Assembly: GCA_963677595.1 (NCBI GenBank)
Contig: OY782041.1
Span: 2,464,001-2,528,000, forward strand
Reading direction: 5' to 3'
Length of the DNA: 64,000 nucleotides
DNA from: Spirochaetia bacterium
Lineage (GTDB): Bacteria; Spirochaetota; Spirochaetia; CAKZLE01
The stretch's first letter is position 1; each line of letters starts with the position of its first letter. The position numbers and the translations under genes are program-made. Shown here one piece after another: positions 1,271 through 64,000 of this stretch. The notes beneath the pieces are model-generated. The model saw only the letters and a list, made by a program, of their open reading frames with translations, was not told where the DNA came from and did no database searches.

Positions 1271-1606
1271 ATAGAGGAAATCATACCTGCATGTAGCCAT
1301 TACCAGCTGCAGTCTCTTCTTTGATTACATAAAGGTAAAAACTTTTAGCCAAAAAATTAGGCATCAAAAAATATTAATAAAAAAATAAGAAATTGAAAAA
1401 TATGAAAACGCCAAAATATTTTTGCTGGTTCTTGGTGAAAAAAGCAGAAAATTCCACGAAATTGTGGTAAATAGCAATTATGACAGTATGAAATGATGCC
1501 AAAGACTGGTAAAGAAAAAGCGAAAAAGATTGACAACCACCATAATCTGTGGGATGCTGTCTTCAGGTTGCTTATGGATTCGTAAAGAAAATTTGGAGGA
1601 AAAGAG

Positions 1607-2989
1607 ATGAAGAAAGACAGATTCTTGTTGGTCTTGGTAGCTGTGTTCATGATGGTTACCTTGTCCCTCTTCGCTGGCGGCGCCCAGGAAGAGACCACGA
1701 CAACACAGGTTTCAACTGCTCCCAGAGAGTTGATGGAGTACAATCTGATTGCTGGAAAACCGTTTGCCGGCCAGACCGTGAAAGTCCTGTGTACTTCCGG
1801 ATCTATCCCGCAGTTCCTGGCTATCAAGCAGCAGGTCGATGAGTTCACCGAACTCACCGGTATTAACGTACAGTGGGATTACACCGTATGGGATGCTTGG
1901 CAGGAGAAATTCATCGCTGAAGCCACAACCGGCGGCGGTAACTACGATATCCTCACCTACATGGACTCCTATGTCGTTGGTGTTCGTAACTATCTCGAAC
2001 CACTTGATGACCTGATCGCACGAGACGGTATCAACATGGATGATTATGCTCCCGGCTTCATCGACATGGTTAAGATGGGCACCGATGAGGTACGTGGTAT
2101 CCCGTTCCGCGGACATGCGAACCTCCTGTATTACAACAAGACCGTATTCGACGAACTTGGCCTTACTCCTCCCAAGACCTGGGATGAACTGGTATCGACT
2201 GCGAAGATCATCGAGGAGAAGACCGGTATGAAGGGTCTAGCCCAGCCGTACGGCGGTTCTTCAGGCCAGAACCTCATGAACTGGCTCGGCATGCTCTGGA
2301 GCAACGGCTCAGTTATCTTCGACGCGAACAACAAGCCGATCTTCAACAATGCTGCAGGCCTCGAGGCTACCGAGAAATACGTAGGGTTCATCACGACCGA
2401 CAAGATCGTGGCTCCCGGTTCGATCACCTTCGGCGAGGGTGATGCGAACAATGAAGTGCTCCAGGGCCGTGCAGCGATGAACATCTGCTGGTCATGGGTC
2501 TACACGAAATACTTCAACCCTGCACAGGCAATCCCTGAAGTGCTCGGCAACGTGGCTCTTACCACCGTTCCGTCATTCCCCGGAAAGCCCTCCTACACCT
2601 TCTCCACCAGCCTTGGTGCCAGTATCTCAGTCGACTCAAAGCGCAAGGATGCAGCTTGGGAATACATGAAGTACTTCACCTCAAAGGAGAAAGAACGAGA
2701 GTACGTCATCGACAAGTCTGATCCAGCTACGGCTAACGTCATCACCATGCATTATGAGAACATGCTCGATCCTGAGGTGAACGCTGCGAACAACGGGCTC
2801 CAGAAGATGGTCTACGAAGGACTCAAGACCTCCAAGGGCCTCCCTGCGATCCCCGAATGGCTGCAGATCCAGTCGATCCTCGAGGTCGCCATGAACAAGA
2901 TGGCTTCAGGCGCAAATGTGAAATCGACACTCGACGCTGCTGCTGTTGATGTCGAGGCTGTCATGAAGCGAGCCGGCTACTATAAGTAG
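1607..2989 (+). CDS. Carbohydrate (CUT1) ABC transporter substrate-binding protein
   Basis: SD GGAGG, spirochaete-type signal ending FAGGAQE, and LYYNK, PKTWDEL and AAWEYMKY motifs. Confidence 0.9.
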   Translation: MKKDRFLLVLVAVFMMVTLSLFAGGAQEETTTTQVSTAPRELMEYNLIAGKPFAGQTVKVLCTSGSIPQFLAIKQQVDEFTELTGINVQWDYTVWDAWQEKFIAEATTGGGNYDILTYMDSYVVGVRNYLEPLDDLIARDGINMDDYAPGFIDMVKMGTDEVRGIPFRGHANLLYYNKTVFDELGLTPPKTWDELVSTAKIIEEKTGMKGLAQPYGGSSGQNLMNWLGMLWSNGSVIFDANNKPIFNNAAGLEATEKYVGFITTDKIVAPGSITFGEGDANNEVLQGRAAMNICWSWVYTKYFNPAQAIPEVLGNVALTTVPSFPGKPSYTFSTSLGASISVDSKRKDAAWEYMKYFTSKEKEREYVIDKSDPATANVITMHYENMLDPEVNAANNGLQKMVYEGLKTSKGLPAIPEWLQIQSILEVAMNKMASGANVKSTLDAAAVDVEAVMKRAGYYK

Positions 2990-2999
2990 GTCGAACGAC

Positions 3000-3096
3000 C
3001 GGGCAGCGATGAGTGCGACTTCAGCGCTGCCCGCTATGTGTGATACCATGTCTGAGTCACCTGCACCGGCAGGGAAACCTGCCGGTGGGCGACTCA
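3000..3096 (+). promoter_or_regulatory. Two intercistronic hairpins after the binding-protein gene (mRNA-stabilising or attenuating)
   Basis: CGGGCAGCG..CGCTGCCCG (3000-3033) and TGAGTCACCTGCACCGGCAGG-GAAA-CCTGCCGGTGGGCGACTCA (3053-3096). No U-tail. Confidence 0.6.
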
Positions 3097-3120
3097 ATAC
3101 AAGTCTTTAGGAGCTGAATC

Positions 3121-3999
3121 GTGAAAGGCGGACACAAAAAACGAAAACTGGTGCTGCTGATACCTGCACTTATCGTGATTGCTATTACATCAACCTATCC
3201 CCTGATCTATGCATTCTGGCTGGGATCTCACCAGTGGCTGATCTCCCAGTCGCCGGTCATGCAGGGGTTCGTAGGACTGGAGAACTTCATTCGGGCATTG
3301 ACGGATTCCAACTTCCTGATGGTTGCGAAGACCAGCTTTCTCTACACCCTTATATCGGTCGTCATGTCTGTCGTGATCGGCTTGGCGATCGCCATTGCCC
3401 TGCAGAAGCCGGGCGTCCTCACGACCCTGACGAAGACCCTGCTCATCTTCCCGTTCGCTATCAGCCCGGCACTGAAGGGATATACCTTCAGGTACATGCT
3501 GCACCCTGAGAGCGGGATCCTCGACCGGTTCTTCAATTTTCTCATCCCGGCCACTGACAACCTGATATGGCTGGGGCATACCGGCTGGGCACTCTTCTGG
3601 CTGGCGATGACCGAGGTCTGGGGCTGGGCCCCCCTGGTCGCACTCATGTTCGTGGGAGCCTTGGGCTCTATATCGACATCGATCTTCGAGGCAGCCAAGC
3701 TTGACGGTACGAACAACGTACAGCTGTTCATCCATGTCACGCTCCCGCTGTTGCTCCCGGTAGTCATGACCATCACCCTGCTGAGGACGATCTTCTCGCT
3801 GAAGATGTTCGACCAGGTAGTCACCATGACCAATGGCGGTCCTGGTGCATCGACGCAGACGTTCAACTACCTGATCTACCAGACCGGGTTCAGGTTCATG
3901 GATATGGGCTATGCAGCCGCGCTGGCTGCGATCCTGATCGTGATCATGGCTATCTTCGCGTCCTTCTATACAAAATCACTGATCAGGGAGGGCGTGTAG
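3121..3999 (+). CDS. Carbohydrate ABC transporter permease (MalF/UgpA-like)
   Basis: FVGLENF, EAA loop EAAKLDG and GYAAALA motifs, multiple TM segments. Confidence 0.92.
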   Translation: MKGGHKKRKLVLLIPALIVIAITSTYPLIYAFWLGSHQWLISQSPVMQGFVGLENFIRALTDSNFLMVAKTSFLYTLISVVMSVVIGLAIAIALQKPGVLTTLTKTLLIFPFAISPALKGYTFRYMLHPESGILDRFFNFLIPATDNLIWLGHTGWALFWLAMTEVWGWAPLVALMFVGALGSISTSIFEAAKLDGTNNVQLFIHVTLPLLLPVVMTITLLRTIFSLKMFDQVVTMTNGGPGASTQTFNYLIYQTGFRFMDMGYAAALAAILIVIMAIFASFYTKSLIREGV

Positions 4000-11664: not shown

Positions 11665-12462
11665 ATGTCAAATAAGACAGTAGAGGCTCTGTTCCTTGGT
11701 GATATCTGCGGAAAACCAGGGGCCAGAGCTCTATTTATTGGATTACGTCAGGTGATCCGCAAGTATAACATCGATATCGTCGTGGCCAACGGCGAGAATG
11801 CAGCCGACGGGTTCGGTATCATGCCCGGCGATGCGGACCAGATCCTCTCTGCCGGGGTCGACGTGATCACCTCCGGGAACCATGTCTGGCAGAAGGATGA
11901 GATCCTCGGCAGGCTGGTCTCGGACCAGAGGCTGCTGAGGCCGGCCAACTATCCTGCACAGGTCCCGGGCCACGGGCTTACCGTCCTGGAGAAGGGCGGC
12001 ATCCCGTTTGCCGTGATCAACCTGCAGGGGAGGGTCAGTATGCCGAATACCGACTGTCCCTTCCGGACGGCTGACGAGCTCCTCAAGCAGGTCCCAGGGA
12101 AGGTGAAGGTCATCCTCATTGACTTCCATGCAGAATCAGCCGAGGAGAAAGAAGCACTAGCCCTTTACCTCGACGGCAGGGCCTCGGTGGTCGTCGGGAC
12201 CCATACCCACGTACAGACAGCTGATGAGCGGATCCTGCCCGGCGGTACCGGCTATATGACCGATCTCGGGATGACCGGGTCAGCCATGAGCGTGATCGGG
12301 AGTGATCCCGGGATCTCCATCCAGCGCCAGCTGACCCAGATCCCCATGAAGAGCGAGATCTGTGATACTGAGGAGATGATCAACGGCCTGATCGCCGGGA
12401 TAGACCCCGCGACCGGCAGGACGGTAAGGCTGAAGCGGCTCAACACCTACCTGGGAGTATGA
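11665..12462 (+). CDS. ymdB: YmdB-like metallophosphoesterase (TIGR00282)
   Basis: GDICG, NGEN, TSGNH, DFHAE and GTHTHVQTAD motifs. Lies directly after rny. Confidence 0.92.
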   Translation: MSNKTVEALFLGDICGKPGARALFIGLRQVIRKYNIDIVVANGENAADGFGIMPGDADQILSAGVDVITSGNHVWQKDEILGRLVSDQRLLRPANYPAQVPGHGLTVLEKGGIPFAVINLQGRVSMPNTDCPFRTADELLKQVPGKVKVILIDFHAESAEEKEALALYLDGRASVVVGTHTHVQTADERILPGGTGYMTDLGMTGSAMSVIGSDPGISIQRQLTQIPMKSEICDTEEMINGLIAGIDPATGRTVRLKRLNTYLGV

Positions 12463-12466
12463 CCCC

Positions 12467-13243
12467 GTGAAGAGGATCCCCCTGCTCGACCTGCTCTGCA
12501 GTCGGTACCCCGACCAGGAGCGGGAGCGCCTGATGGCCCGGATCATGTGCCGGGACGTCATGGTTGACGGCGGGCGGATCGCCAACCCGAAGGAGAAGGT
12601 CCGCCTTGATGCCGAAGTAGCCTTCCTTGATGAGGCCTTCGTCTCACGGGGCGGCAGGAAGCTCGAGCATGCGCTTGACGTGTTCGGTGTCGCGGTGGAC
12701 GGCAAGGTGTTCATCGATGCCGGAGCATCCACCGGGGGGTTCACCCACTGCCTGCTCTCCCGAGGGGCGGGGATGGTCTATGCGGTGGATGTCGGGTACA
12801 ACCAGCTCGCCTACCAGCTCCGTACCGACAGCCGGGTAGTGGTGATGGAGCAGACGAACATCATGCATGTCTCCGGCCTGGAACCGGTCCCAGACGCAGC
12901 GGTAGCAGACCTCTCGTTCCGGTCCATCTCCGGAGCTGCCTCCCACATACTCTCCCAGGTGACAGAACAGTGGATGATCGCACTGATCAAGCCCCAGTTC
13001 GAGCTGCAGCAGGAGATCCCCTCCTTTGACGGGGTCATTCGGGATACCTCAGTGGTCTCACGGGTGCTGCTGAAGACCTTCACCCAGCTCTCCGAAGAGG
13101 GGGTGGGGGTCGCGGGGATCACCGAGTCCCCGATCCTCGGCACGAAGGGGAACCGGGAGTACCTGGCCCTGCTCAAGCCGTCTGGAGCCCAGACCCTGTC
13201 AGCAGCGGGATTCTCCCAGCATATAACCTCATTGTTCCATTGA
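12467..13243 (+). CDS. tlyA: TlyA-family rRNA 2'-O-methyltransferase
   Basis: S4 domain, FVSRGGRKL, DAGASTGGFT, LIKPQFE and GNREYL. Confidence 0.93.
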   Translation: MKRIPLLDLLCSRYPDQERERLMARIMCRDVMVDGGRIANPKEKVRLDAEVAFLDEAFVSRGGRKLEHALDVFGVAVDGKVFIDAGASTGGFTHCLLSRGAGMVYAVDVGYNQLAYQLRTDSRVVVMEQTNIMHVSGLEPVPDAAVADLSFRSISGAASHILSQVTEQWMIALIKPQFELQQEIPSFDGVIRDTSVVSRVLLKTFTQLSEEGVGVAGITESPILGTKGNREYLALLKPSGAQTLSAAGFSQHITSLFH

Positions 13244-35226: not shown

Positions 35227-36369
35227 ATGGCGAGCATTCACGAGCTTCACAGCCGGGAGTATGGTGAGGCGCCCGAGGTTGCCGTATCGGTACCGGGGGT
35301 CATCACGCTAATGGGGGAATATTCTGATCTGTGTGACGGATATGCCCTGACCGGAGCTGTGGACTGTACAACTCAGATAGCGATATCTCGTAGGACGGAT
35401 AATTCTCTGCGTTTCTATTCAGCAGAACTGAATGAACGGAAGAGGACCACCATCCCCAACCTGAAGTACCGCAGGGAGGATCGCTGGGCGAACTACATCA
35501 AGGGAGTGCTCTATGAGACCTACCGCAGGAACTTCATCTTCAAGGGCCTGAACATCACGGTCAAGTCGAACATCCCGCAGCGGGTAGGCTTGCGGGCCTC
35601 CACGGCAGTCTGTACCTCGGCAGCCCTGGCCCTGAAAGAGCTCTTCAACTTCGATGTCGATGACAACCAGCTCATCCAGGCGATCTACTTCGCCGAGACC
35701 TCCTTCCTCCAGTCGAAGTCACGGCTGGTGGACATCATGACCATGCTGAATGCGAGGGAGGGGTCGGTGATGCTCTTCGACCTCCACTCCTTCGAGTTCT
35801 CCTATATCCCCATCGATATGGGGGCTGACCAGTTCCTCATCACGGAGAGTAACGTCCCTCCCTTCCCGGTACGGGATGAGATCGTCTACCGGGAGGAGCA
35901 GTGCCAGGAAGGACTCTCTGTGATGCGCTCCAAACTCCAGGGAGGCCTGATCAGGGAGTACTCGCTCGGTGCGATCAACGGTGCAGCCGCACCGCTTCCT
36001 GAGGAGCAGAAACGGTTCTGCGTCTATGTGCTCGAGGAGAGTTATCGGGTACAGGAGGCAGCCCATGCCCTTGAACAAAAAGACTCCCCGTCGTATGGTA
36101 GGTTCATGAACAGGTCACAGACCGGGCTGAGGGATCAGTTCGAGGTCTCCTGTCCGGAGATCGACTGGCTGACCAAGCGTGCGACAGAGATCAGCGGCTG
36201 TTTCGGGGCGAACATGATCGGCCCGGGCTTCGGGGGGAGCACCCTGTCCCTGATGACTCCTGCCGCACGGGAAGAATACATGCATCGATTAGAGGAGTAT
36301 GAGCACATTTTCGGATTTCATCCTGAATTGATCGAGTATCATCCGATGGGGAAAGCCCGCATAATGTGA
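35227..36369 (+). CDS. Galactokinase-like GHMP kinase (divergent)
   Basis: WANYIKGV, SQTGLRDQFEVSCPEID and GPGFGG. Catalytic and ATP motifs are altered. Confidence 0.75.
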   Translation: MASIHELHSREYGEAPEVAVSVPGVITLMGEYSDLCDGYALTGAVDCTTQIAISRRTDNSLRFYSAELNERKRTTIPNLKYRREDRWANYIKGVLYETYRRNFIFKGLNITVKSNIPQRVGLRASTAVCTSAALALKELFNFDVDDNQLIQAIYFAETSFLQSKSRLVDIMTMLNAREGSVMLFDLHSFEFSYIPIDMGADQFLITESNVPPFPVRDEIVYREEQCQEGLSVMRSKLQGGLIREYSLGAINGAAAPLPEEQKRFCVYVLEESYRVQEAAHALEQKDSPSYGRFMNRSQTGLRDQFEVSCPEIDWLTKRATEISGCFGANMIGPGFGGSTLSLMTPAAREEYMHRLEEYEHIFGFHPELIEYHPMGKARIM

Positions 36370-36383
36370 CCAGCAGGATCACC

Positions 36384-37142
36384 ATGAGAATTCTCATAAC
36401 CAATGACGACGGAATCCACAGTGAAGGCCTGCACAGCCTGAGAGAGACGCTTCTGCAGGCCGGCCATGAGGTATGGGTATGTGCCCCCGACACGGAGCGG
36501 AGCGCCCATTCCCACGCGATCACCCTGAAGGTCCCGGTGAAGTTCCACGAGATCGAACCGCGGGTATACAGCTGCAGCGGGACACCGGCAGACTGCATCT
36601 TCTACGGGCTCAAGGGAGCCTTGCCCATGGTCCCCGATGTCGTCGTCTCAGGGATCAACAAGGGATACAATGTCGGGACCGATATCATCTATTCCGGGAC
36701 GGTCGGAGCCGCACGGGAGGCTGTCCTCCACAAGATCCCCGCGATCGCCATCTCCGCCGAGGGCTTCGAGCCTCCCCATCCGTTCGCACAGGCAGCCCGG
36801 TTCCTCGCTGACCATATCGAGGGGTTCCTTCCGCTCTGGACGGATGATATCGTCATAAACATCAACGTCCCCTTCGAGCCGGACGGCAGCTGGCAGGCGG
36901 CGACCCCGCAGCAGCGGGACTACGATGACCGGATCCAGCCCTTCCAGGTTCGGGAGAACGAGATCTTCTATTTCCTCAAGGGAGGGAACTCCACGACGGG
37001 GAAGATACAGCTCGATCCCGGCTCCGATATGGATTTTCTCAAGAAAAATGTCATTACCGTCACCCCTCTTTATATCCATCCGACCGCTGATTCGATACAA
37101 TACGAAGCATTCAAGGAGCTGGCGAGGAACGGGGGACGATGA
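36384..37142 (+). CDS. surE: 5'/3'-nucleotidase SurE
   Basis: ILITNDDGI, GTPADC, SGINKG.N and YSGTVGAA. Confidence 0.95.
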   Translation: MRILITNDDGIHSEGLHSLRETLLQAGHEVWVCAPDTERSAHSHAITLKVPVKFHEIEPRVYSCSGTPADCIFYGLKGALPMVPDVVVSGINKGYNVGTDIIYSGTVGAAREAVLHKIPAIAISAEGFEPPHPFAQAARFLADHIEGFLPLWTDDIVININVPFEPDGSWQAATPQQRDYDDRIQPFQVRENEIFYFLKGGNSTTGKIQLDPGSDMDFLKKNVITVTPLYIHPTADSIQYEAFKELARNGGR

Positions 37143-37510
37143 TACGACCGGTACAGTGGTACAGGAACATGAAGCAGGAACGGACTCAGAAGTGGGATAG
37201 CCACTGCAGTCGGTGCGGACTCTGCTGCCATGAGAAGACCATCATTGGCAAAGAGGTCGTCTATGACCTCGACCAGTGGTGCGAACACTTCGACCCCGTC
37301 ACGCGAACCTGCCGGGTCTATGCGAAACGGCTCACCGAGCATGTGAGATGCAGGCCGGTGACCGTATTCCGTGCGATGTTCGCGACCTATCTCCCCCCCG
37401 AATGCGGGTATGTCCGATGGGCAGAACAGCATCATCTCCGTTTGGCCCCCTACCGCCGGATCCATTATGTCCGTGACGGTGAAGAAGACACAGCAGCCCT
37501 TCTCTCCTGA
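37139..37510 (+). CDS. YkgJ/YcgN-like cysteine cluster (CxxCxxCC) protein
   Basis: CSRCGLCC, C.HFD...TC.VY..R and LPPECGY. Confidence 0.75.
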   Translation: MIRPVQWYRNMKQERTQKWDSHCSRCGLCCHEKTIIGKEVVYDLDQWCEHFDPVTRTCRVYAKRLTEHVRCRPVTVFRAMFATYLPPECGYVRWAEQHHLRLAPYRRIHYVRDGEEDTAALLS

Positions 37511-53174: not shown

Positions 53175-54056
53175 ATGAGAAACGTGAGACGAAACATGAT
53201 CCTGCCCTTGGCGGCTTTAGTGATCCTGCTGCTGGTCCTCAGCTGCCGGGAACCCGGGCTGCAGGATGAGTTGGACAGCCTTGCCGTGCAGGCCTCTGCG
53301 CTGCCGACAGCGGATCGAGGCTATGCGGAGTGTTTCCCGGCTGGGAACCTCTCCGCTGAACCGGTCAGGATCGAGCTTGCCCTCGACGGGGAGTCCGGTC
53401 TTTGGGGCGGGAGTGCAGGAGTGGCGGGGGGAGTCTACCGGGTCGTGACGACCATGGAGACTGCTGACGGGGAGACCGCGGCATACAGTGTCGACGAGGT
53501 CTCCGTGGACGGCACAGCCTCGCTGGCAGTCGAACTCGATGCCGGCTATACGGTAGGGGAGGAGACTGCCTCCGGCGGGTTCATCTTCCATGAGCAGGAT
53601 GCCCGCTCCACAGCGATGACCGGCTGGCGGTATCTCTGCTGTGCCCCGGGGGACTGGCATGAGTCAGGGACGGACCCTGTCTGCGGGTGGAGCTATTCCG
53701 GGAGGGACACCGGTCTCACCCGTCCCGTGGTAGGGGCAGGCCTCGTGAACTGCACGGCACTGGACACGATCGAGGAGATCCCCGCTTCCGCGGTCGGGAT
53801 CTGCATGGATCACAGCTGCGCAGACTGTACCGACTGGTTCCTCCCGTCGGCAGAGGAACTGCAGCTGCTGTATGAACGCATCTACCTCGACGGGGAGACG
53901 GATGCCGGCTTCGTCGAAGACGGGTTCTACTGGTCCTCCACCGAGGCTGATGAGATGAAAGCCTACTGCTGGGAATTCAGCGAGACGGGGAAGCTGATCG
54001 CCGGTCCGAAACTGCTGGACAACGTGATACGCGTCCGGCCGGTCCGTACCCTCTAA
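53175..54056 (+). CDS. Lipoprotein with C-terminal DUF1566/Lcl-like domain
   Basis: Lipobox LVLSC, SGGFIF, DWFLPS.EEL, YWSSTE and VRPVR. Confidence 0.7.
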   Translation: MRNVRRNMILPLAALVILLLVLSCREPGLQDELDSLAVQASALPTADRGYAECFPAGNLSAEPVRIELALDGESGLWGGSAGVAGGVYRVVTTMETADGETAAYSVDEVSVDGTASLAVELDAGYTVGEETASGGFIFHEQDARSTAMTGWRYLCCAPGDWHESGTDPVCGWSYSGRDTGLTRPVVGAGLVNCTALDTIEEIPASAVGICMDHSCADCTDWFLPSAEELQLLYERIYLDGETDAGFVEDGFYWSSTEADEMKAYCWEFSETGKLIAGPKLLDNVIRVRPVRTL

Positions 54057-55213
54057 TCCGAGAGCTGCTTGAGGACCTCGCCCCAGCTGCAGGCGAGGTC
54101 CGCTGCCGGGTCCCCGACATGCGGCATGGCATAGAGCTGGTGGAGGATGCTCATCCCCGCTCCCAGGGCGATGCTGCAGATATGGTTGGGATCCTGCCGC
54201 ACCCGTGCGGCATGGTCTGCCTCATCATACCAGCTGTGCTTAAGGGAGCTTCCAAGCAGCTCTTCGACCAGGCTGAACCGCTCTGAGAGCAGGCCGCTCA
54301 GGATGATCATGTCAGGGTCGAGCATACGTGCCGATGGGATGAGCCGGGTCAGGGTCGTCTCGATGAACACCGCTAACATCGCATCATCTTCAGTGACCTT
54401 GAGCAGGTCCTCCCGGGTGAACGGGACAGACTCCACCTGTGATTCGAACCAGGAGTTGATGGAGAACTCCCCAGTGATATACCGGGAGCCGTGCCAGATC
54501 TCCCCGTTCACGATGACCGCCCCGCCGAGTTCTACCGAGTTCACCCGTCCTGCGCTGTCGGTCATGATCCTGGGGAGGATGAACAGCCCGTTACGGAAGG
54601 ACTCTCCTTCCGGGGCAAGGAAGATGGCATTGGCGGCACCGCAGTTGGCATCGTTCTCCAGGAAGACCGGTACGGGCAGTCGGTGGAAGAGCGGCCTGAG
54701 ATCAGCATCATGCAGGTCGAAGAGACGGGAATGGATGATCGTGGACTGCCGTGAGTCGACGGTCCCCGAGATGCCGATACCGGCAGCGATGATCGTGGCG
54801 TAATGCCGGATCCCGAGGAGGCTGTATGCCTTCCTGACGATATCGGCGATGAACTGCCCCGAGCGGTCAGGCTTGTATGGGATCCGTTCGGTGTCGATGA
54901 CCAATCCTGCGAGGTTGATCAGCAGGACCTCAGCGTTCTCAGGTTCTAAGTTGATCCCGATGATGCAGGCTGCACCGGCGCATAGCTCGAGCATGACCGG
55001 CTTCCTGCCCCCGGCAGGGGTGGAGAAGCCTGACTCGACTTCCCTGATGAGGCCGGCACCAAGCAGTTCGGTGATGATGTTCGTGACCGTCGACCGCTTG
55101 AGTGACGTGATCCTGGAGAGTTCAGCCCGGCTGACCTTCCCCCGCTTCCTGATCTCATCCATCAGGAGGGAGCGGTGGGCCTCCTTCTGGTACTGCTGGC
55201 TCACGGTGATCAT
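54053..55213 (-). CDS. ROK-family transcriptional regulator (NagC/XylR-like)
   Basis: HTH SRAELS..T.L..STV, GGRKP and ENDANC. Lacks the Cys-rich Zn motif. Confidence 0.85.
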   Translation of the reverse strand: MITVSQQYQKEAHRSLLMDEIRKRGKVSRAELSRITSLKRSTVTNIITELLGAGLIREVESGFSTPAGGRKPVMLELCAGAACIIGINLEPENAEVLLINLAGLVIDTERIPYKPDRSGQFIADIVRKAYSLLGIRHYATIIAAGIGISGTVDSRQSTIIHSRLFDLHDADLRPLFHRLPVPVFLENDANCGAANAIFLAPEGESFRNGLFILPRIMTDSAGRVNSVELGGAVIVNGEIWHGSRYITGEFSINSWFESQVESVPFTREDLLKVTEDDAMLAVFIETTLTRLIPSARMLDPDMIILSGLLSERFSLVEELLGSSLKHSWYDEADHAARVRQDPNHICSIALGAGMSILHQLYAMPHVGDPAADLACSWGEVLKQLSD

Positions 55214-56430
55214 GCGCGGGACTCACGGTCAAAGACGAACTTCCCGCCGATCATGGTCCTGCTGACCTCGATCTCCCTGCTGCAGATGACCAGATCCGCA
55301 CTCCTCCCCGGCAGGAGGGACCCGATGAGGTCATCGGCCTCATAGATCCTCGCCGGATTGAGACAGGCCATCGGGATCACCTCGCTCCTGCTCATGCCGT
55401 AGCTGAGCATCTGCCTGATTCCCCTGTCCATCGTCAGGGCTGATCCCGCGATCGTCCCGTCCTCGACCCGGCAGAAGACGCCGTTCTCGAGCTGCACATT
55501 GTCCCCCTTCACGTCATAGACCCCGTGGGGGTCGAGCCCGGTGGGCTTGAGGGAGTCCGTGACCAGGACGATCTTCCCTGCAGGCTTCTCCTTGACGAGG
55601 AACTCCACCAGGGAGGGGTGGACATGGATACCGTCAGAGATCAGCTCGCAGGAGATCTCCGGGTGGATCAGGATCGCCCCGACGACCCCCGGGTCCCGGT
55701 GGTGCATCGACCGCATGGCATTGAAGAAGTGGGTCGCGTGGAGGATCCCGGCCTCGATCCCCTCGACCATCTGTTCATAGGAGGCGTTCGAATGGCCGGC
55801 GAGGAGCACGATCCCGTATTTCTGCGCCTCTGAGGCGAACTCACGCATCCCCTTGAGTTCCGGGGCTACCGTCATGGCCCGTATGGAACCACCGGAAGCC
55901 TGCCAGTACTCCTTGAGCAGGGCTGTGTCGACATCCCTGATGAAGGAGGGGTCATGGATCCCCTTCTTCTTCTCCGAGATGAACGGCCCCTCCATATGGA
56001 TGCCCGCGATCCGTGCGCCCTGTACACCCTCTTCCTCCTGGATTGCTATCGCTTCCCGGATAGCTTCCAGTGCACGCAGGCTGTGTTCCTTCCCCAGGGT
56101 CGCGAGGGTGGGGATGAACGAGGTGACCCCGTAGGCCGGGAGGTGGGCGGCCATCTCGAGGATGGCCGCAGGATCCGCGTCCTCGGTCCCGAACCCATGG
56201 ATCCCGTGGATATGGGTATCGAAGAAGCCGGGTGCGATCATGGCTCCGCCGCAGTCGATCATGCGGTAGTCAGAATCCTTCGTGTATCGATCGAGCCGTG
56301 CGGTCGAATAGACGTTCTCGATGAAGCCGTCCCGTATGAGGACGAACCCGTCCGTGATATGGGTGAACCCCGTATAGATGTCGGCATTATAGAGACAGAT
56401 CGCCGATTCTGATTGACCGTTCTCTGTCAT
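55210..56430 (-). CDS. nagA: N-acetylglucosamine-6-phosphate deacetylase
   Basis: DTHIHG, HMEGPFI, GHSNA, THFFNAM, DGIHVHP and IAGS.LTM. Confidence 0.93.
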   Translation of the reverse strand: MTENGQSESAICLYNADIYTGFTHITDGFVLIRDGFIENVYSTARLDRYTKDSDYRMIDCGGAMIAPGFFDTHIHGIHGFGTEDADPAAILEMAAHLPAYGVTSFIPTLATLGKEHSLRALEAIREAIAIQEEEGVQGARIAGIHMEGPFISEKKKGIHDPSFIRDVDTALLKEYWQASGGSIRAMTVAPELKGMREFASEAQKYGIVLLAGHSNASYEQMVEGIEAGILHATHFFNAMRSMHHRDPGVVGAILIHPEISCELISDGIHVHPSLVEFLVKEKPAGKIVLVTDSLKPTGLDPHGVYDVKGDNVQLENGVFCRVEDGTIAGSALTMDRGIRQMLSYGMSRSEVIPMACLNPARIYEADDLIGSLLPGRSADLVICSREIEVSRTMIGGKFVFDRESRA

Positions 56431-56445
56431 GATGGTATACTCCTT

Positions 56446-56474
56446 TTAGTTTGTTCAAGCTGTTAACATACTAA
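56446..56474. promoter_or_regulatory. Candidate ROK operator (inverted repeat)
   Basis: TTAGTTTGTT-N9-AACATACTAA in the nagA/DUF4954 divergent region. Half-sites resemble XylR-type ROK operators. Confidence 0.55.
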
Positions 56475-56609
56475 GCATACTGGTAAACGGCCGGACAGGC
56501 AAGTGTATTCATGATTAATTAGCTAAGGTGATCTTTATGTGCTTGTTCATTGCATACATGTTCTCTCTATTGTACTCTAGAGTGAACAGGGTAACTCCAG
56601 GGGGATGGT

Positions 56610-58601
56610 ATGTATAGAGCTTTGACAGTAGAGGAGATCGAACAGCTGGAGCACAACCGATGCTCCGCTGAGACTTGGGATACCGTCCTGGTGTCCGACG
56701 GGTTCGACCCCGGGCGGGTACGCCATACGGAGTTCTCCGGGGAGATACGCCTCGGGACCTTCCGGGAGACGGTGACCATGGCAGGGGGCATCAGTTTCCC
56801 GACCGGCATCGCGGATGCGGTCCTCCACAACGTGACCGTGGGCGACGAGGCCATGATCCGGAAGGTCGACCAGTACATCGCGAACTATGACATAGCCGAC
56901 CATGCGGTCCTCTATGAGATCACCTCCCTGATCGTCGACGGTGAATCCACCTTCGGCAACGGGGTCGAGGTCCCGGTGATCAATGAGGGAGGGGGCAGGG
57001 AGGTCATCATCTATGATGGGTTATCGGGGCATATCGCATATTTACAGTCCCTCTACCGGTACCGGACCAGCCTGATCGATTCCCTCCGGGAGGTGATCGG
57101 CAGGTATGTGGAGACGAAGCGTTCCTCACGGGGGCGGATCGGTTCCCATGCAGAACTGCACGGCTGCGGTCCCATCCAGGATGTGACTGTCGGTCCCTGG
57201 GCAGTGATCCGCGGGGTGGCAAAGCTCACGAACGGGACAGTCAACAGCTGTGAGGAGGACCGGACCGTGATCGGCCATGAGGTGACTGCCGAGGATTTCA
57301 TCTTCGCCGAGGGGGCGAAGGTCACCGAGGGGGCGATCGTCGAGTCCTGTTATGTCGGGCAGTCGGCTGAGCTTTCACGGCAGTTCTCCGCGGAGAACTC
57401 CGTCTTCTTCGCGAACTGCGCCTGCTTCCACGGGGAGGCCTGCTCGATCTTCGCCGGGCCCAACACCGTCAGCCACCACAAGTCGACCCTGCTCATCGCG
57501 GCGCAGGTCTCCTTCCTCAATGCAGGGAGCGGGTCAAACCAGAGCAACCATATGTACAAGCTCGGTCCGAACCACCAGGGGATCCTCGAGCGGGGTTCTA
57601 AGACCGCCTCTGACTCCTACATGCTCTTCCCGATGCATGTGGGGGCCTTCTCGGTCATCATGGGGAGGCACTACAACAACTCGGATACCTCCGACCTGCC
57701 GTTCTCCTACCTGATCGAGCATGACGGGGAGAGCCTCCTGATCCCGGGGGTGAACCTGCGTTCCGTGGGGACGGTCCGGGATTCCAGGAAGTGGCCCAAC
57801 CGTGACAAGCGAAAGACCGGGAACCGGCATGACCTGATCATCTACAACCTGCTGACCCCCTATACCGTGCAGCGGGTACTCAGCGGCTATGAGACCCTGA
57901 AGGCTATCCAGTCACGGTCTGGCCACTCCTCGGTCGTCTACTTCCATAACGGCGTCCAGATCTCGAAATCGGCCCTCGAGAAGGGGCTTCATTTCTATGA
58001 ACTGGCATTCCGGAGGTACCTGGGGAATACCGTCGTGAACCAGCTGAGGGGCTGTACCGAGCTGAGCCGTGAGGCGGTATTCTCGGTCCTGCAGCCGACC
58101 GGTACGACAGGTGAGGGCACCTGGCTCGACATAGCGGGGCTGGTCGCCCCGAAAGAGGCGATAGACACCATGATCGAGGAGATCGAGGGTGGGACCCTCG
58201 ATTCGATCAACAGTATCGATGAGCGGTTCAGGCAGGTCTATGACTCCTTCGGGGAGTATGAGCTTAGCTGGGTCATGAGGAAGGTCTGTGACCAGCTCTC
58301 GAAGAGCTTTGACGAGCTCACCCTGGAAGATATCAGGGAGGTCGTCAGCCAGTGGATAGCTAACGTCACCGAACTCGACAGGCTGAGGATACAGGATGCC
58401 AAGAAAGAGTTCGCCCCGACGGCGAAGGTGGGGTACGCCCTAAACGGGGACCCTGCCGAACGGGATGCCGAGTACCGTGTCATCCACGGGGACCCGGATG
58501 GGAACAGCTTCATCCGGGACCTTCAGAAGCGGTTGGCAGTGAAGCAGGAGACAGCGAAAGGGCTGCTGGCAGCCCTGGACAGACTGATACAACAGGAATG
58601 A
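56610..58601 (+). CDS. DUF4954-family protein (beta-helix-like repeats)
   Basis: YR.LT.EEI..L, V.VINEGGGREV, GEACSIFAGP.TVSHHKSTLLIA and NAGSGSNQSNHMYKLGP motifs. Confidence 0.78.
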   Translation: MYRALTVEEIEQLEHNRCSAETWDTVLVSDGFDPGRVRHTEFSGEIRLGTFRETVTMAGGISFPTGIADAVLHNVTVGDEAMIRKVDQYIANYDIADHAVLYEITSLIVDGESTFGNGVEVPVINEGGGREVIIYDGLSGHIAYLQSLYRYRTSLIDSLREVIGRYVETKRSSRGRIGSHAELHGCGPIQDVTVGPWAVIRGVAKLTNGTVNSCEEDRTVIGHEVTAEDFIFAEGAKVTEGAIVESCYVGQSAELSRQFSAENSVFFANCACFHGEACSIFAGPNTVSHHKSTLLIAAQVSFLNAGSGSNQSNHMYKLGPNHQGILERGSKTASDSYMLFPMHVGAFSVIMGRHYNNSDTSDLPFSYLIEHDGESLLIPGVNLRSVGTVRDSRKWPNRDKRKTGNRHDLIIYNLLTPYTVQRVLSGYETLKAIQSRSGHSSVVYFHNGVQISKSALEKGLHFYELAFRRYLGNTVVNQLRGCTELSREAVFSVLQPTGTTGEGTWLDIAGLVAPKEAIDTMIEEIEGGTLDSINSIDERFRQVYDSFGEYELSWVMRKVCDQLSKSFDELTLEDIREVVSQWIANVTELDRLRIQDAKKEFAPTAKVGYALNGDPAERDAEYRVIHGDPDGNSFIRDLQKRLAVKQETAKGLLAALDRLIQQE

Positions 58602-58614
58602 TGAGGAGTAAGAG

Positions 58615-59406
58615 ATGAGACTGATCATACAGAAGGATTACCGGGGATTATCTGAGTGGGCTGCAGCCTATATCGTCGACGCGATCAAGAACAGCAGGCC
58701 TTCCGCCGAGCGGCCGTTCGTGCTGGGGCTTCCCACCGGGTCTACCCCGCTGGGGACCTACAGGAGGCTGATACAGCTCTATAACCAGGGAGCTGTATCC
58801 TTCGAGCACGTCGTGACCTTCAACATGGATGAGTATATCGGGATACCCGAGGACCATCCTGAGAGCTACCATACCTTCATGTGGGAGAACTTCTTCTCCA
58901 TGATCGACATCAAGCGGGAGCACGTGAACATCCTCGACGGGAATGCCGCCGACCTCCAGGCAGAGTGCGCCTCCTACGAGGAGCGGATCCGCTCCTACGG
59001 CGGGATCGACCTCTTCCTCGGCGGGATCGGGGCAGACGGCCATATCGCCTTCAATGAGCCCGGCTCATCCCTGAGGTCGAGGACCCGTATCAAGAGCCTC
59101 ACCTACGACACGATCGTCGCGAACTCGAGGTTCTTCGATGGTGACCTCGATAAGGTCCCGAAGCAGGCATTGACGGTCGGGGTGCAGACGGTCATGGATG
59201 CCCGCGAGCTGGTCATCCTGGCAAGCGGATTGAACAAGGCGACTGCCCTGCAGAAGACGATCGAGGAGGGAGTCAACCATATGTGGACCTGCAGCGTCAT
59301 CCAGATGCATGAGAAGTCGCTCATCGTCTGTGACGAGAAGGCGACCCAGGAGCTGAAGGTGAAGACCGTCTCCTACTTCAAGGATATAGAAGCGCAGAAT
59401 ATATAG
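58615..59406 (+). CDS. nagB: Glucosamine-6-phosphate deaminase
   Basis: [15 protein letters not shown] and [15 protein letters not shown]. Confidence 0.96.
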
Positions 59407-59466
59407 GGATTAGATAGGGTTCCCATCTGGTACAAGCGTCCCGTTACCGCTATGATACACAGTATC

Positions 59467-60642
59467 ATGAATGCGAGCCAGAAAGAACACTACCGTTATT
59501 TCCTCCTTACCGTCCTCCTCTTCGGGGTCGCCACGGCGCTCTTCAGGGGAGTGTTCGACAACTACCTGGCAGAGATCCTGGAGGTCTCGAAGGCTGACCG
59601 GGGCGTGGTGGAGTTCTTCCGCGAGATGCCGGGGCTCTTCCTCGTGGTGATCCTCGCGCTCTTCTACCGGTTACCTGAGAACAGGATCCTGCAGGCAGGC
59701 TATGCCATCGCCCTGGTAGGGATCACCGGCTTCATGCTGGCGGGCCCCAAGATGGTCCCCGCTATCGCCCTGCTGATGGTCTGGAGTGCCGGCATCCATA
59801 TCGTGATGCCGGTGAGGCAGTCCTATGCAGTCCACTCTGTCGAGCCGGGACAGGAGGGCAAGGCCCTCGGGAACATGCGGGGGGTACTGAATATCGGCTG
59901 GGTAGCCGGGTACTTCCTGGTGCCGGTGATCTTCCTCTTCGTCTCGGGTGAGGCAGGATTTCGCACCACCTTCATCGCCGTCATCATCCTGATCATCATA
60001 TCGATCGGTATCTCCTTCAAGCTGAAGAGCGATACCGGGAGGATCAAGAGGCAGCGTCTCTACTTCGCGAAGAAGTACAGCAAGTATTATGTGCTCCAGA
60101 GTTTCTACGGTGCGAGGAAGCAGGTCTTCCTCACCTTCGGGCCCTATGTCCTGATCCTCATGTACGGGGCGGATGCCTCGGTCATAGCCACGCTCTTCGC
60201 CGTCAGTTCAGCCCTGAACATCTTCGTCTCCCCGCTGATCGGGAAGATCATAGACAAGGCCGGGTACAAGGCGGTCATGGTGGGGGATACGGTCATCCTC
60301 TTCTTCGTCTGCCTCGTCTACGGCTTCGCCCACCATATATTCTCACAGCATGCCGCCTATATAGCGGTGATCACCGTGTTCATCCTGGACAACCTCCTCT
60401 CCAATGCGAGCATGGCGGGGAGCGTCTATGTGAAGGAGTTGAGCAGCGGGAGGGAGGAGATGACCGCCACCCTCACGACCGGCTTGTCGATCGACCACCT
60501 GATCAGCATCTTCATAGCGCTTGCTGGCGGGTTCATCTGGCAGAACCTCGGGATCGAGCTGCTCTTCATCCTGGCAGGGGTCATGGCGCTCGCGAACTCC
60601 GCGGTCGCCCTTACGGTGCGAGTCGTTGAGAGGGGGCAGTGA
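59467..60642 (+). CDS. MFS transporter
   Basis: About 12 TM segments, REMPG and GKIIDKAG motif-A-like loop. Confidence 0.8.
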   Translation: MNASQKEHYRYFLLTVLLFGVATALFRGVFDNYLAEILEVSKADRGVVEFFREMPGLFLVVILALFYRLPENRILQAGYAIALVGITGFMLAGPKMVPAIALLMVWSAGIHIVMPVRQSYAVHSVEPGQEGKALGNMRGVLNIGWVAGYFLVPVIFLFVSGEAGFRTTFIAVIILIIISIGISFKLKSDTGRIKRQRLYFAKKYSKYYVLQSFYGARKQVFLTFGPYVLILMYGADASVIATLFAVSSALNIFVSPLIGKIIDKAGYKAVMVGDTVILFFVCLVYGFAHHIFSQHAAYIAVITVFILDNLLSNASMAGSVYVKELSSGREEMTATLTTGLSIDHLISIFIALAGGFIWQNLGIELLFILAGVMALANSAVALTVRVVERGQ

Positions 60643-61030: not shown

Positions 61031-62005
61031 ATGAGAGCTGAACGGATCGTCATGATTACCGGATTCTCCATCCTGATCGCGACTGTGTCGCAGCTCTATA
61101 TCTTCAGCGGTATAGAATCCTTTCGCCATCATTGGCTCTTTTCCCTGGTGAAGCTCCTCATGTTCGCCGCATTCGCCTATGAAGTAGTCCTCGATGCAGC
61201 AAGCGAATACCATACCGTACTCTCCCCACGATACTTCTGGAACCAGGAGGCACTCCTCGAAGGCGCGGCCGTGGTCCTCGGGGCTGTCGTCACCTTCTTC
61301 GTCAGCATAGAGATCGGGCATGGCGGGGTGATCGCATCGGCGATCGTGGGGCTGACAACAGCTGTCCTCTTCCCGCAGCTCGCTGCCGCTGCCTACTGCG
61401 GCTCCTTCGTGGGCATGGCTTCGACGGTGGTCTTCCCCACCTATGAGGAACTCCTGCTGGCAGGGGTCCTCTCTGCGGTGTTCTTCGTCATCACGAAACC
61501 CGCCTGCAAGGGCTTCGGGGGGAAGCTCGGGACCATAGCCTTCGCAGGCACGATCCTGTCGATCACGATCCTGGGTTCGGAGGTCACCGGCGGGATCGTA
61601 CCGGACCTGGAGCTGGGTATCTCCCTGGTGTTCCTCTCCATGGCAGGAGCCTATCTCACTTATCTGGTGAACGTGATCCTCGGCCATGGGCCGGTCATCG
61701 CATCAGCGCTCATAGGCCTGCTCGCAGGACTCGTGCTGCCGGCCATCTATGGTCCTGACACCGGCACGACACTTGCCCTCATGGTCTTCTGCGCTTCGTT
61801 CGCCGGCATGAGCAGCCGGGAGCGAATACGTTCCTGGTATTACATCCTCGCTGCAGGAGCGCTGTCAGCACTCATCTTCATCTTCTCGATGCCCTACATG
61901 GGCGGGGCAGGGGGTAAGATGGGTACGACAGCGTTCGGTGCAGTCATCTCCATCGTCGGCATTGAGAGATTGGCGATGAAGTTCACTTCCTCAACCGCTC
62001 GATGA
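61031..62005 (+). CDS. Polytopic membrane protein with internal two-fold repeat
   Basis: GHGxVIASAxxGL...C.SF.GM.S...GGK.GT.AF occurs twice. Confidence 0.7.
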   Translation: MRAERIVMITGFSILIATVSQLYIFSGIESFRHHWLFSLVKLLMFAAFAYEVVLDAASEYHTVLSPRYFWNQEALLEGAAVVLGAVVTFFVSIEIGHGGVIASAIVGLTTAVLFPQLAAAAYCGSFVGMASTVVFPTYEELLLAGVLSAVFFVITKPACKGFGGKLGTIAFAGTILSITILGSEVTGGIVPDLELGISLVFLSMAGAYLTYLVNVILGHGPVIASALIGLLAGLVLPAIYGPDTGTTLALMVFCASFAGMSSRERIRSWYYILAAGALSALIFIFSMPYMGGAGGKMGTTAFGAVISIVGIERLAMKFTSSTAR

Positions 62006-62205: not shown

Positions 62206-62268
62206 CATGTCAACAAGACAACAGGTTATCAAGTTATCATACCAGTTGTAATTTGAATGGAGGATCAC

Positions 62269-62712
62269 GTGGCAGAAGAGATGTTTCTTATGAAATGGCC
62301 GGAACTGGGTAAGCAGGTCAGATTGAGAAAGATTGAACACAATACGGAAGTATTTGATTGGTTCATGGATAATTTACCCACTAGTGGGATTCAGAGTCAT
62401 ACGGTAGTTGCGGGGTATGCCCTTACCTGTATGAGCCTTCCCGTCAAGAAACCATTCACCTACCGGTTTGCCGACCTGAAACAGGAGAACCTCGTTCCCC
62501 TGAAGAAGGGCCGATTCATCCTGAACATGACAATCGGTAATGTCATCAACTATGCGGTGAAATGGGGCGAGATGACAGAGCCTATGGCGTATCCTTCTTG
62601 GGCGGAAGTCGTCGATGAGGATATGGATACGCTGATCGAAGTAGGGAAGATCATCTGGCATAACATCGTGAATGAGAAGAAGATCATTCATGTTGAATAC
62701 GAGAAGGCGTGA
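62269..62712 (+). CDS. McbB/cucumopine synthase N-terminal-domain-like protein, copy 1
   Basis: KWPELG..V, LP...IQSHTVVAG and AVKWGEMTE..Y...AEVVDEDM..L.EVG..IW align with the McbB N-domain as I recall it. GTG start after GGAGGA. Confidence 0.7.
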   Translation: MAEEMFLMKWPELGKQVRLRKIEHNTEVFDWFMDNLPTSGIQSHTVVAGYALTCMSLPVKKPFTYRFADLKQENLVPLKKGRFILNMTIGNVINYAVKWGEMTEPMAYPSWAEVVDEDMDTLIEVGKIIWHNIVNEKKIIHVEYEKA

Positions 62713-62721
62713 GGTGTGACT

Positions 62722-63225
62722 ATGTGGAAAGATGTAAAAGCCGAGATAGATGCTGAGAACGAGAGACTGAGGTTCGAGGCTCCGGAAGATGTTGTGAAGG
62801 TAGTCCACCTTCGAGTGATCGATAGTGAATCGGGAACGGAGAAGATCCCCATGGGGAATTGGTTCTTCTCATTCTCCGATATCAGGTACGTAGGGGCTTA
62901 CCTCTACCAGATCATGAACCTGACCATGGATGATTCGTACTCCGTCGATCAGGCGAAGGAACTGGTATTCAAGATGATCTCACAGACCTCCGATTTTGCC
63001 GGATACTGCGGGTTCGTGACGCTCAGGACGTTTGTATTCAAGGCACTGGACGTGCTTGATGAGATAGACAACAAGGAAGACCTGTTCAGCCTGCTGAACT
63101 CAGTCTTCCTCTATGCCTCACACCTGCATACATGGATCAATAACTACTTCCCATGGAGTTATAACTACGCATTCCCGATCAGGACACCTGAAGATGTCGC
63201 TGATATGCAGAAATACGTGGACTAG
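62722..63225 (+). CDS. McbB/cucumopine synthase C-terminal helical-bundle-like protein, copy 1
   Basis: EI..E.ER....P, DFAGYCG..TL and LYAS.L.TW...YFPW match the C-terminal bundle motif. Confidence 0.72.
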   Translation: MWKDVKAEIDAENERLRFEAPEDVVKVVHLRVIDSESGTEKIPMGNWFFSFSDIRYVGAYLYQIMNLTMDDSYSVDQAKELVFKMISQTSDFAGYCGFVTLRTFVFKALDVLDEIDNKEDLFSLLNSVFLYASHLHTWINNYFPWSYNYAFPIRTPEDVADMQKYVD

Positions 63226-63239
63226 AAGGAGATAAGAGA

Positions 63240-63686
63240 ATGGCAGATTATTTCAAGATCAAATGGGAAAGTTTAGGGAAAGAGGTCCGCTGCAAAAAGA
63301 TAGAGCACAACCAGTTTATGTTCGACTGGTTCGAGGAGCAGCTTCCTGTCAAATCGATGCAGGGACATACCCTGGCCGCAGGCTGGGCGATCATGCACGT
63401 ATCAGTGCCGCTGAACAAGCCTGTCAACTGGGAGATGCGTACCGAAGTGACCGAGGTCATCGGGGAGCAGAACGAAGGTCGTGTGACCATGTTCATGGGT
63501 AACGGCACCTCCGCAGGCCTTGTCATCAAGTACGGCAGAATCACAGAGGATATGAGCTACCCGACCTTCGCGGAAGTCGTAGAAGAGGACCTGGGTATCC
63601 TGAAGGAAGTGGGTGCAGCCCAGTGGGAAGCGATACTCTATACAAAAGAGATCATTATTGCAGAGTTCTGCAAGGTAGAGGATTAA
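63240..63686 (+). CDS. McbB/cucumopine synthase N-terminal-domain-like protein, copy 2
   Basis: Paralogue of 62269-62712, with LPVKSMQGHTLAAG, VIKYGRITE and VVEEDL..LKEVG...W.A...TK. Confidence 0.72.
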   Translation: MADYFKIKWESLGKEVRCKKIEHNQFMFDWFEEQLPVKSMQGHTLAAGWAIMHVSVPLNKPVNWEMRTEVTEVIGEQNEGRVTMFMGNGTSAGLVIKYGRITEDMSYPTFAEVVEEDLGILKEVGAAQWEAILYTKEIIIAEFCKVED

Positions 63687-63690
63687 GCAT

Positions 63691-64000
63691 ATGGCAGATT
63701 GGAAAGTTGTTGCAGATAAGCTGACGGTTGCCGCTGAGAAGATACGGCTCGAACCGGATCATGATGTGGTCAAGACCATCAAATATGGACTGATTAATAC
63801 AGGAGCAGGGAACGGCGGTGCATTCAATGCCTGGGTGTTCGCATGCGGGGACGTCCGCCATGTAGGGGCATATTGCTATTACATCCTGTGGTTCGCAAAC
63901 CACTCCGAGGATTTCACCCTCGACCAGCTCAAGGACATGACCAGGCTCTGGCCAAGACAGCCTGCTGAGTTCGCTGCGTACTGCGGGTTCGATGAGCTCT
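63691..64000 (+). CDS. McbB/cucumopine synthase C-terminal-domain-like protein, copy 2 (3'-truncated by window)
   Basis: Own translation MADWKVVADKL...GAG...GDVRHVGAY...PAEFAAYCGFDEL. Paralogue of 62722-63225, open to the window end and absent from the ORF track. Confidence 0.7.
   Translation, partial: MADWKVVADKLTVAAEKIRLEPDHDVVKTIKYGLINTGAGNGGAFNAWVFACGDVRHVGAYCYYILWFANHSEDFTLDQLKDMTRLWPRQPAEFAAYCGFDEL

Follow-up and report, generated by a model that had tools for sequence, protein, structure and literature searches.

Characterised bacterial Pictet-Spenglerases are single-chain homodimers in which a β-barrel and a helical bundle share one polypeptide. In McbB from Marinactinospora thermotolerans (PDB 3X27), a biosynthetic β-carboline enzyme, the barrel precedes the bundle; KslB is domain-swapped by comparison, with the bundle first (PMC12012969), and cucumopine synthase has, by implication, this second order too (PMC12536604). 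Arg256 and Lys264 of KslB bind 2-oxoglutarate, and McbB has no such keto-acid clamp (PMC12012969). In a 64,000-nucleotide stretch of a genome assigned to Spirochaetia (genome positions 2,464,001-2,528,000, hereafter the window), four consecutive genes, called here A1, B1, A2 and B2, encode the same two halves as separate proteins, each half twice. We give a probability of roughly 0.45 to the reading in which the four proteins form a heterotetrameric lyase that would run the Pictet-Spengler reaction backwards, yielding a triose and an aromatic amino acid that is likely to be histidine; its chemistry, direction and substrate are what we infer.

The split halves and their active sites

The source genome is a single contig of 4.33 Mb, which allowed B2 to be completed beyond the window edge at 64000. 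A search for FlaA as a marker of a spirochaete host gave no match in any of the DNA searched. Coordinates past that edge are extended ones (genome position minus 2,464,000).

62269-62712, forward strand: A1, stand-alone cyclophilin-like β-barrel half, DUF3830-like, 147 amino acids (sequence and fold match)
62722-63225, forward strand: B1, stand-alone helical-bundle half, 167 amino acids (PF18631)
63240-63686, forward strand: A2, second β-barrel half, 148 amino acids, with Glu103 retained (sequence match)
63691-64203 (extended), forward strand: B2, second helical-bundle half, 170 amino acids (PF18631)

The helical halves pass the Pfam family PF18631 with 54.7 bits (B1) and 72.6 bits (B2) against a cut-off of 27; they are the only two matches in the genome, and none of 14 control genomes has one. 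The A1 sequence matches the β domains of AsKslB, KslB and McbB with E-values of 1.2e-8 to 4.8e-4, and a 77-row profile of the barrel reaches E 6e-37 on McbB. The A1 structural model, built from a deep alignment, has a mean predicted confidence (pLDDT) of 97.3 and is closest to KslB and AsKslB (PDB 9NS6, 9K0A and 9UWA, TM 0.81-0.82; for KslB, TM 0.81 and E 2.9e-9), with TM 0.81 to McbB. The same barrel occurs as a free protein among the DUF3830 (PF12903) and cyclophilin-like proteins (PDB 3KOP and TM1367, TM 0.75 to the A1 model), and among the Atlas look-alikes of A1 found by language-model search (0.94-0.97) DUF3830 is annotated on 21-78% of members. Unlike DUF3830 proteins, A1 and A2 are paired with bundle genes and match neither PF12903 nor any other Pfam family at E up to 1. 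A search for longer fused relatives gave one match, weak and among crowded candidates. A1 and A2 are the barrel halves, and B1 and B2 the bundle halves, of the McbB/KslB/cucumopine-synthase fold. An earlier reading of this DNA, made from the sequence only, had likened the A chains to the N-terminal domain of McbB and the B chains to the cucumopine-synthase C-terminal Pfam domain, and both assignments stand; its picture of a family with an N-terminal barrel and a C-terminal bundle holds for McbB but not for KslB nor, by implication, for cucumopine synthase.

That reading had also placed four co-oriented open reading frames in two paralogous pairs here, and their positions, starts and motifs agree with what we see. 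All four starts are Shine-Dalgarno (SD)-like and the intergenic gaps are 4-14 nt; A1 begins with GTG, with GGAGG 6 nt upstream, and an ATG in the same frame, at 62257, overlaps the SD sequence. The proteins carry the motifs QSHTVVAG, QGHTLAAG, KWGEMTE, KYGRITE, SDFAGYCG, AEFAAYCG and YFPW, and the part of B2 past the window edge has YIPW. A1 and A2 share 60 of 147 residues, B1 and B2 51 of 167. Contigs from four public runs cover the array with zero indels; those of a related strain (runs X2 and X3 of one sample, about 95-99% alike) span all three junctions, and 17 of 18 substitutions in its B2 (among the 40 of 102 difference rows listed) fall at third codon positions. The split of the halves is therefore real and under selection, and an assembly frameshift, which the earlier reading had already thought unlikely, is ruled out. 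A decaying or artefactually split fused gene finds a precedent in the relative L007, with frameshifts in A2 and B2, but the break points are alike across arrays save for one A1-B1 fusion, and together with the SD-like starts, indel-free contigs and third-position substitutions they leave this explanation a negligible chance.

When A1 and A2 are mapped on KslB, both retain the catalytic glutamate (Glu274 in KslB, Glu97 in McbB) as Glu104 and Glu103, respectively, as the sequence-only reading had it, and both retain the carboxylate loop. B1 and B2 keep the equivalents of KslB F46, R52, F89 and Y92. The keto-acid clamp that KslB and AsKslB carry is missing: the positions of Arg256 and Lys264 are occupied by Ile and Asn in A1 and by Thr and Gly in A2, and both residues are absent from all 26 A1 and A2 rows compared (13 of each), whereas they are present in 8 of 8 bundle-barrel representatives. 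For this reason 2-oxoglutarate or a similar keto acid is an unlikely partner, contrary to the keto-acid option in the assay that the earlier reading had suggested, and in this respect the A chains resemble McbB. KslB Ser225 is replaced by Ala, a change tolerated in AsKslB (PMC12547825), Tyr230 by Thr or Met, and the indole-contacting Ile50 by Asp in 12 of the 12 B2 rows compared. By these comparisons the array appears to be a variant of the bacterial Pictet-Spenglerase kind, sharing its fold and catalytic residues and lacking both its single chain, with four genes in its place, and the 2-oxoglutarate clamp.

The predicted four-chain complex and the distribution of the array

In a four-chain model, A1B1A2B2 scores 0.84, against 0.25 for the best control, a mark that is reached by 116 of 157 solved pairs and 2 of 215 mismatched pairs. 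Contact agreement between runs is at least 76% and partner pLDDT at least 83. The modelled B2 touches the carboxylate loop (residues 45-50) and the glutamate loop (103-106) of A1, as well as A2 and B1. Sequence change across the arrays points to the same contact. Of the 12 complete arrays compared, 7, every one of them Oscillospiraceae-type, carry Asp instead of the glutamate in A2 and have lost the equivalents of F46, F89 and Y92 from B1, while A1 retains Glu and B2 is aromatic at all three positions. F55A and F98A of AsKslB, at the positions of KslB F46 and F89 and contributed by the adjacent monomer, abolish activity (PMC12547825), and E100 of Fcs1 tolerates no substitution (PMC10372676), so that in these seven arrays only the pairing of A1 with B2 would yield a live site. 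Since the seven are close kin, their concerted change is support and not proof; in the other five, the window array included, every tested active-site residue is retained in both pairs.

The heterotetramer, which the sequence-only reading had put forward as a possibility, thus gains from both the model and the concerted change, and we think it probable that the four proteins form one complex. Some observations tell the other way. The score may stem from likeness to the solved McbB and KslB dimers, the job being unlike those on which the tool was calibrated; an arrangement of (A1)2(B2)2 plus (A2)2(B1)2 would also be compatible with the concerted change; KslB F89A lowers activity only slightly (PMC12012969); and in the Oscillospiraceae arrays A1 lacks the His of Q-x-H while A2 has gained a conserved Arg and Glu, so that the second site there may have acquired a new role and need not be dead. 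Two independent enzymes, (A1B1)2 with (A2B2)2 or (A1B2)2 with (A2B1)2, acting on differing substrates or opposite diastereomers, would account for the complete active sites of both pairs here and in four other arrays, and lone split pairs do exist elsewhere (L019, L024 and plasmid pRi1724). However, (A1B1)2 and (A2B2)2 would each miss essential residues in 7 of 12 arrays, the pairs stay together and in order across three phyla, with the whole block duplicated in L006, L016 and L017, and the four-chain model is confident; this arrangement is, in our estimate, quite unlikely.

A profile search of 1.84 billion representatives returned 134 family matches: 78 of stand-alone length (130-190 amino acids), 18 fused barrel-bundle, 10 fused bundle-barrel, 26 fragments and 2 of other form. 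Some stand-alone rows, nested among fused ones, are probably truncated gene calls. With 78 of 134 stand-alone and a split pair on pRi1724, splitting is not peculiar to this locus, contrary to what the earlier reading had supposed, and that reading's claim of a natural split and duplication is upheld by conservation of the array across records and by the sister branches of B1 and B2. The order A1-B1-A2-B2 is found again in records from Spirochaetota, Bacillota and Chloroflexota, with three loci found in genome scans and 12 in metagenomes. The array clade comprises 14 locus sets, counting the window genome (G000) and a further array of genome G402; one additional locus falls outside it.

G000: the window array
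L005: Spirochaetaceae array
L006, L018, L023, L015, L016 and L017: Oscillospiraceae-type arrays, L018 being 99.9% identical to L006
L007: Chloroflexia array, with frameshifts
L012/L020/L021: one organism
L011, L013, L014 and L022: further arrays
L019: single pair, outside the array clade

The gene order is intact wherever the contig permits; the block is present twice in L006, L016 and L017, and A1 and B1 are fused in L014. In the bundle tree, B1 (13 rows) and B2 (14 rows) are sister branches (support 92 and 95, jointly 98), indicating that the array stems from one old duplication that was retained; they lie closer to the fused barrel-bundle proteins than to Cus/KslB, a placement with weak support (84). 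A quick, unrooted tree of 151 barrel rows, with fragments under 105 aligned residues excluded, puts A1 and A2 in a clade separate from McbB, a 56-row branch (support 100) of proteins that are stand-alone but for one fusion. A2 falls into two groups there, the bundle-barrel proteins form one branch (99), and mikimopine synthase groups with the split barrel from its own plasmid (96). The pattern in this unrooted tree would agree with free halves having fused repeatedly, in one order or the other.

The array was found in none of 60 lineage relatives, two of the same genus among them, in none of 400 other genomes sampled from the phylum, and in 4 of 401 genomes of the family of G402, that genome included. 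Absence from relatives rules out a lineage-wide trait; the scatter, together with an array GC content of 0.43-0.51 against 0.55 for the genome, marks the array as a patchy cassette. The array of L012/L020/L021 is bracketed, 5' of A1 and past B2, by duplicates of a 3' piece of B2 (about 280-300 bp, 96-98% identical) that resemble the footprint of recombination or amplification. The Oscillospiraceae genome G402 (contigs C9, C19, C20 and C47; loci L006 and L023-L027) has 12 bundle genes and split pairs of at least three clades, accompanied by varied transporters and LysR or GntR regulators; of its four aromatic-lyase matches one lies directly 3' of a split pair. In L036 (genome G521, 1495-3464) a split pair lies directly 3' of an open reading frame that looks, by eye, like a histidine ammonia-lyase.

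Operon context and the proposed reaction

The genes 3' of B2, which lie past the window edge, include an importer, a kinase and a regulator:

64218-65249, forward strand: NMT1/THI5-type binding protein
65335-66180, forward strand: ABC ATPase
66201-66965, forward strand: permease
67012-68010, forward strand: DhaK-like protein (Dak1)
68025-68645, forward strand: DhaL-like protein (Dak2)
68655-69773, forward strand: HisC-family aminotransferase, additional to the his-operon copy
69789-71039, forward strand: hydantoinase/carbamoylase-family amidase
71073-72467, forward strand: dihydropyrimidinase/D-hydantoinase
72498-73319, forward strand: ADC/MppR-like enzyme
73538-74263, forward strand: GntR/FCD regulator

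Transporters, a regulator and partner enzymes were what the sequence-only reading had advised looking for downstream, and an ABC importer, a GntR/FCD protein, a kinase and HisC are there. Dak1 adjoins 10 of the 14 array locus sets (L018 being counted through its identity to L006), in about five independent lineages, and the four loci without it (L011, L013, L014 and L022) are contigs of 1.3-2.4 kb. Four whole genomes with arrays have 2, 2, 3 and 2 Dak1 genes, one of them within about 9 kb of each array locus, where a Dak1 gene would by chance fall within 10 kb in about 1% of genomes; G402 has six further bundle genes, which are on contigs without Dak1. Two DhaK subtypes occur near arrays, a canonical one in L006, over its cut-off, and a non-canonical one in the window genome. 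HisC is found also in L028 and L021, in both with IorA/IorB-like and acyl-CoA ligase genes. The sole aromatic-lyase gene of genome G401 adjoins its array and passes the cut-off of a hutH model (528.5 versus 524), while on another model it scores 527.6 versus 539.15. No histidine ammonia-lyase or urocanase match was found in the window genome, which rules out the hut route there. Hydantoinase and carbamoylase occur in the window operon and L005, with none seen at other array loci in the DNA covered; the ADC/MppR-like enzyme is present in L028 as well, and L005 has UbiD/UbiX.

The setting of the array, with importer, kinase and deaminating enzymes, favours the catabolic direction over synthesis. 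The earlier reading had allowed that the complex might either make or degrade condensation products; degradation is the part of it that the neighbourhood favours, and its role is probably catabolic. A retro-Pictet-Spengler chemistry has a somewhat better than even chance, and exactly histidine and a triose as products a less than even one. In the mechanism that we propose, a cyclic amino acid-carbonyl adduct would be imported by the NMT1/THI5-type ABC system and bound by an A1B1A2B2 complex predicted to assemble like the McbB and KslB homodimers. By analogy with KslB and AsKslB, the amino acid carboxylate would be held by the backbone loop after Q-x-H, the conserved glutamate would protonate a ring carbon, the C-C bond would break to give an iminium, and water would hydrolyse it. 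As in those enzymes, each site may be closed by a partner's bundle, here in trans by that of the other pair, A1 by B2 and A2 by B1. The products would be a neutral triose, for which dihydroxyacetone and glyceraldehyde are the likely candidates, and an aromatic amino acid, for which histidine is. The DhaK/DhaL-like kinase could trap the sugar as triose phosphate and so pull the reaction, and the amino acid would be consumed by HisC (in the window operon, and with IOR and an acyl-CoA ligase in two relatives) or by histidine ammonia-lyase (in L005).

Several observations weigh against this scheme. The literature searched contained neither a natural histidine-triose adduct nor an enzymatic retro-Pictet-Spengler reaction. 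The DhaK of the window operon is under the dhaK equivalog cut-off (356.6 versus 406.25), so that a tetrose is possible, and the DhaK of L020 is 72% identical to the other, unlinked DhaK of the window genome and could be part of an adjacent sugar operon. Trp, Phe and Tyr are substrates of HisC-type transaminases and IOR as well; the HisC at the array of G403 is the only one over the cut-off in that genome; and the DNA covered around the Oscillospiraceae arrays showed no histidine gene next to them. ADC, hydantoinase, carbamoylase and UbiD/UbiX are left over by histidine and triose alone, and because they are unaccounted for, a non-Pictet-Spengler lyase stays alive: the same complex and catabolic operon would serve a Glu-dependent enzyme acting as an imine hydrolase or as a retro-Mannich or deglycating lyase, which would strip a glycated amino acid or a pyrimidine or imidazole heterocycle of its polyol chain and pass the ring to hydantoinase and carbamoylase. 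The NMT1/THI5-type binding protein, the distribution of those leftover genes and the Asp at the Ile50 position would suit such an enzyme. Yet the hydantoinases and carbamoylases of the window operon and L005 are only 31-33% identical, the array retains the glutamate, the carboxylate loop and the aromatics that cage the ring in Pictet-Spenglerases, and histidine-degrading genes recur near family members, and on balance we hold it unlikely. A biosynthetic Pictet-Spenglerase, joining an amino acid to a carbonyl derived from a triose (methylglyoxal, for example) to give a product of opine or carboline type, would agree with every characterised member of the family being a synthase, with the use of Trp and methylglyoxal by McbB and its fungal homologues (PMC12536604), with the weakly supported position of B1 and B2 and with the near-identical copies in his-biosynthetic and hut settings on one Paraburkholderia plasmid. 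Against it, transporters with substrate-binding proteins are importers, the conserved neighbours are a kinase that consumes free triose and deaminating enzymes, the regulator is of FadR type, and no tailoring or export genes were seen near arrays, so that synthesis is very improbable.

A promoter and terminator scan at the array gave matches no better than the shuffled level. A GTTAT motif is repeated at 62223-62243 of the window, 5' of A1, a possible GntR/FadR operator, and akin GGTTAT sites lie 5' of the arrays in L014 and L023. Molybdenum-hydroxylase-like subunit genes near arrays (L028, 15502-18717, by eye; L017, 687-1514, by Pfam) could oxidise an imidazole ring toward hydantoin. Just past the regulator, a DUF917/hydantoinase-A cluster starts on the opposite strand and was not taken as part of the operon. 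Beyond the window (L001 18680 to L002 6833), a divergent operon pair surrounds a cytosine/purine permease and a sigma-54 activator, each operon pairing a DUF917 (S-Me-THD-like) gene with a partner that is hydantoinase-A-like or unassigned. Within the window, 61031-62005 encodes a hydrophobic 324-residue protein that contains a repeat of one of its own segments and matches no Pfam family, and 54053-60642 holds an N-acetylglucosamine-type set: ROK-like regulator, NagA-like deacetylase, 663-residue protein, NagB-like deaminase and MFS transporter, of which the transporter alone was scanned and the rest were named by eye.

Ri-plasmid homologues and meaning for the family

Cucumopine and mikimopine synthases, which condense histidine with 2-oxoglutarate, and their plasmid homologues resemble the array in being histidine-linked members of the family, with a split pair on pRi1724. 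They differ in that the Ri-plasmid homologues have no DhaKL and are distant from the array in both trees, and the pRi2659 copies carry the Arg/Lys clamp. Homologues of Cus and Mis outside the transferred DNA (T-DNA) of pRi2659 and pRi1724 adjoin hut, ABC and hydantoinase/oxoprolinase genes, a context from which we infer a catabolic role. On pRi1724 (L009, NC_002575, 27055-28022) the split barrel and bundle lie just past a mikimopine-synthase-like gene and are a candidate first enzyme of mikimopine catabolism and a possible source of the synthase. On pRi2659 (L008, NC_010841, 16264-18549) two divergent fused paralogues of opposite domain order, both retaining Glu, Arg and Lys, stand by hutH/hutC and ABC genes; they are candidate cucumopine-cleaving enzymes, perhaps a heterodimer, though one might be the T-DNA cus gene itself. 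The symbiotic plasmid of Paraburkholderia phenoliruptrix (L010, NC_018696) has near-identical bundle-barrel copies at 12227-13198 and 36236-37222, one in a hut/ABC/hydantoinase cluster and the other with hisG, hisZ, hisC and an MFS transporter, which has the look of a rhizopine-style system that both makes and consumes a cucumopine-like compound. The accessible portions of PMC8087989, PMC8554961, PMC11351324 and bioRxiv 2023.06.20.545721 name no cucumopine-catabolic enzymes.

Splitting itself is common in this family; what is new is a duplicated clade with intact glutamate and a DhaKL-linked catabolic context. The literature searched, which left aside subscription papers on Mis, pRi1724 and pAtAg67 and supplements, contained no description of split, heteromeric or degradative members. 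The characterised members of the fold being one-chain synthases, the array offers a concrete test case for enzymatic retro-Pictet-Spengler cleavage, and it bears on the microbial recycling of amino acid-sugar adducts, whose formation in foods, guts and sediments is spontaneous. The split form would provide a simple origin for the domain swap between McbB and KslB, the two-site heterotetramer would be a new scaffold for biocatalysis, and the Ri-plasmid homologues make the first step of cucumopine and mikimopine catabolism testable. As a tentative wider proposal, less likely than not, the A1B1A2B2 clade may be a heterotetrameric retro-Pictet-Spenglerase with which anaerobes feed on glycation adducts of histidine and a triose (spinacine-type) that arise spontaneously. 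The clade would then be one branch of a large superfamily, for the most part split and catabolic, whose known synthases would have arisen by separate fusions in both domain orders. Were this wider proposal true, it would also put a name to the first enzymes, so far missing, that break down cucumopine and mikimopine on Ri plasmids, and the Oscillospiraceae genome with 12 bundle genes would be a specialist scavenger of Pictet-Spengler adducts.

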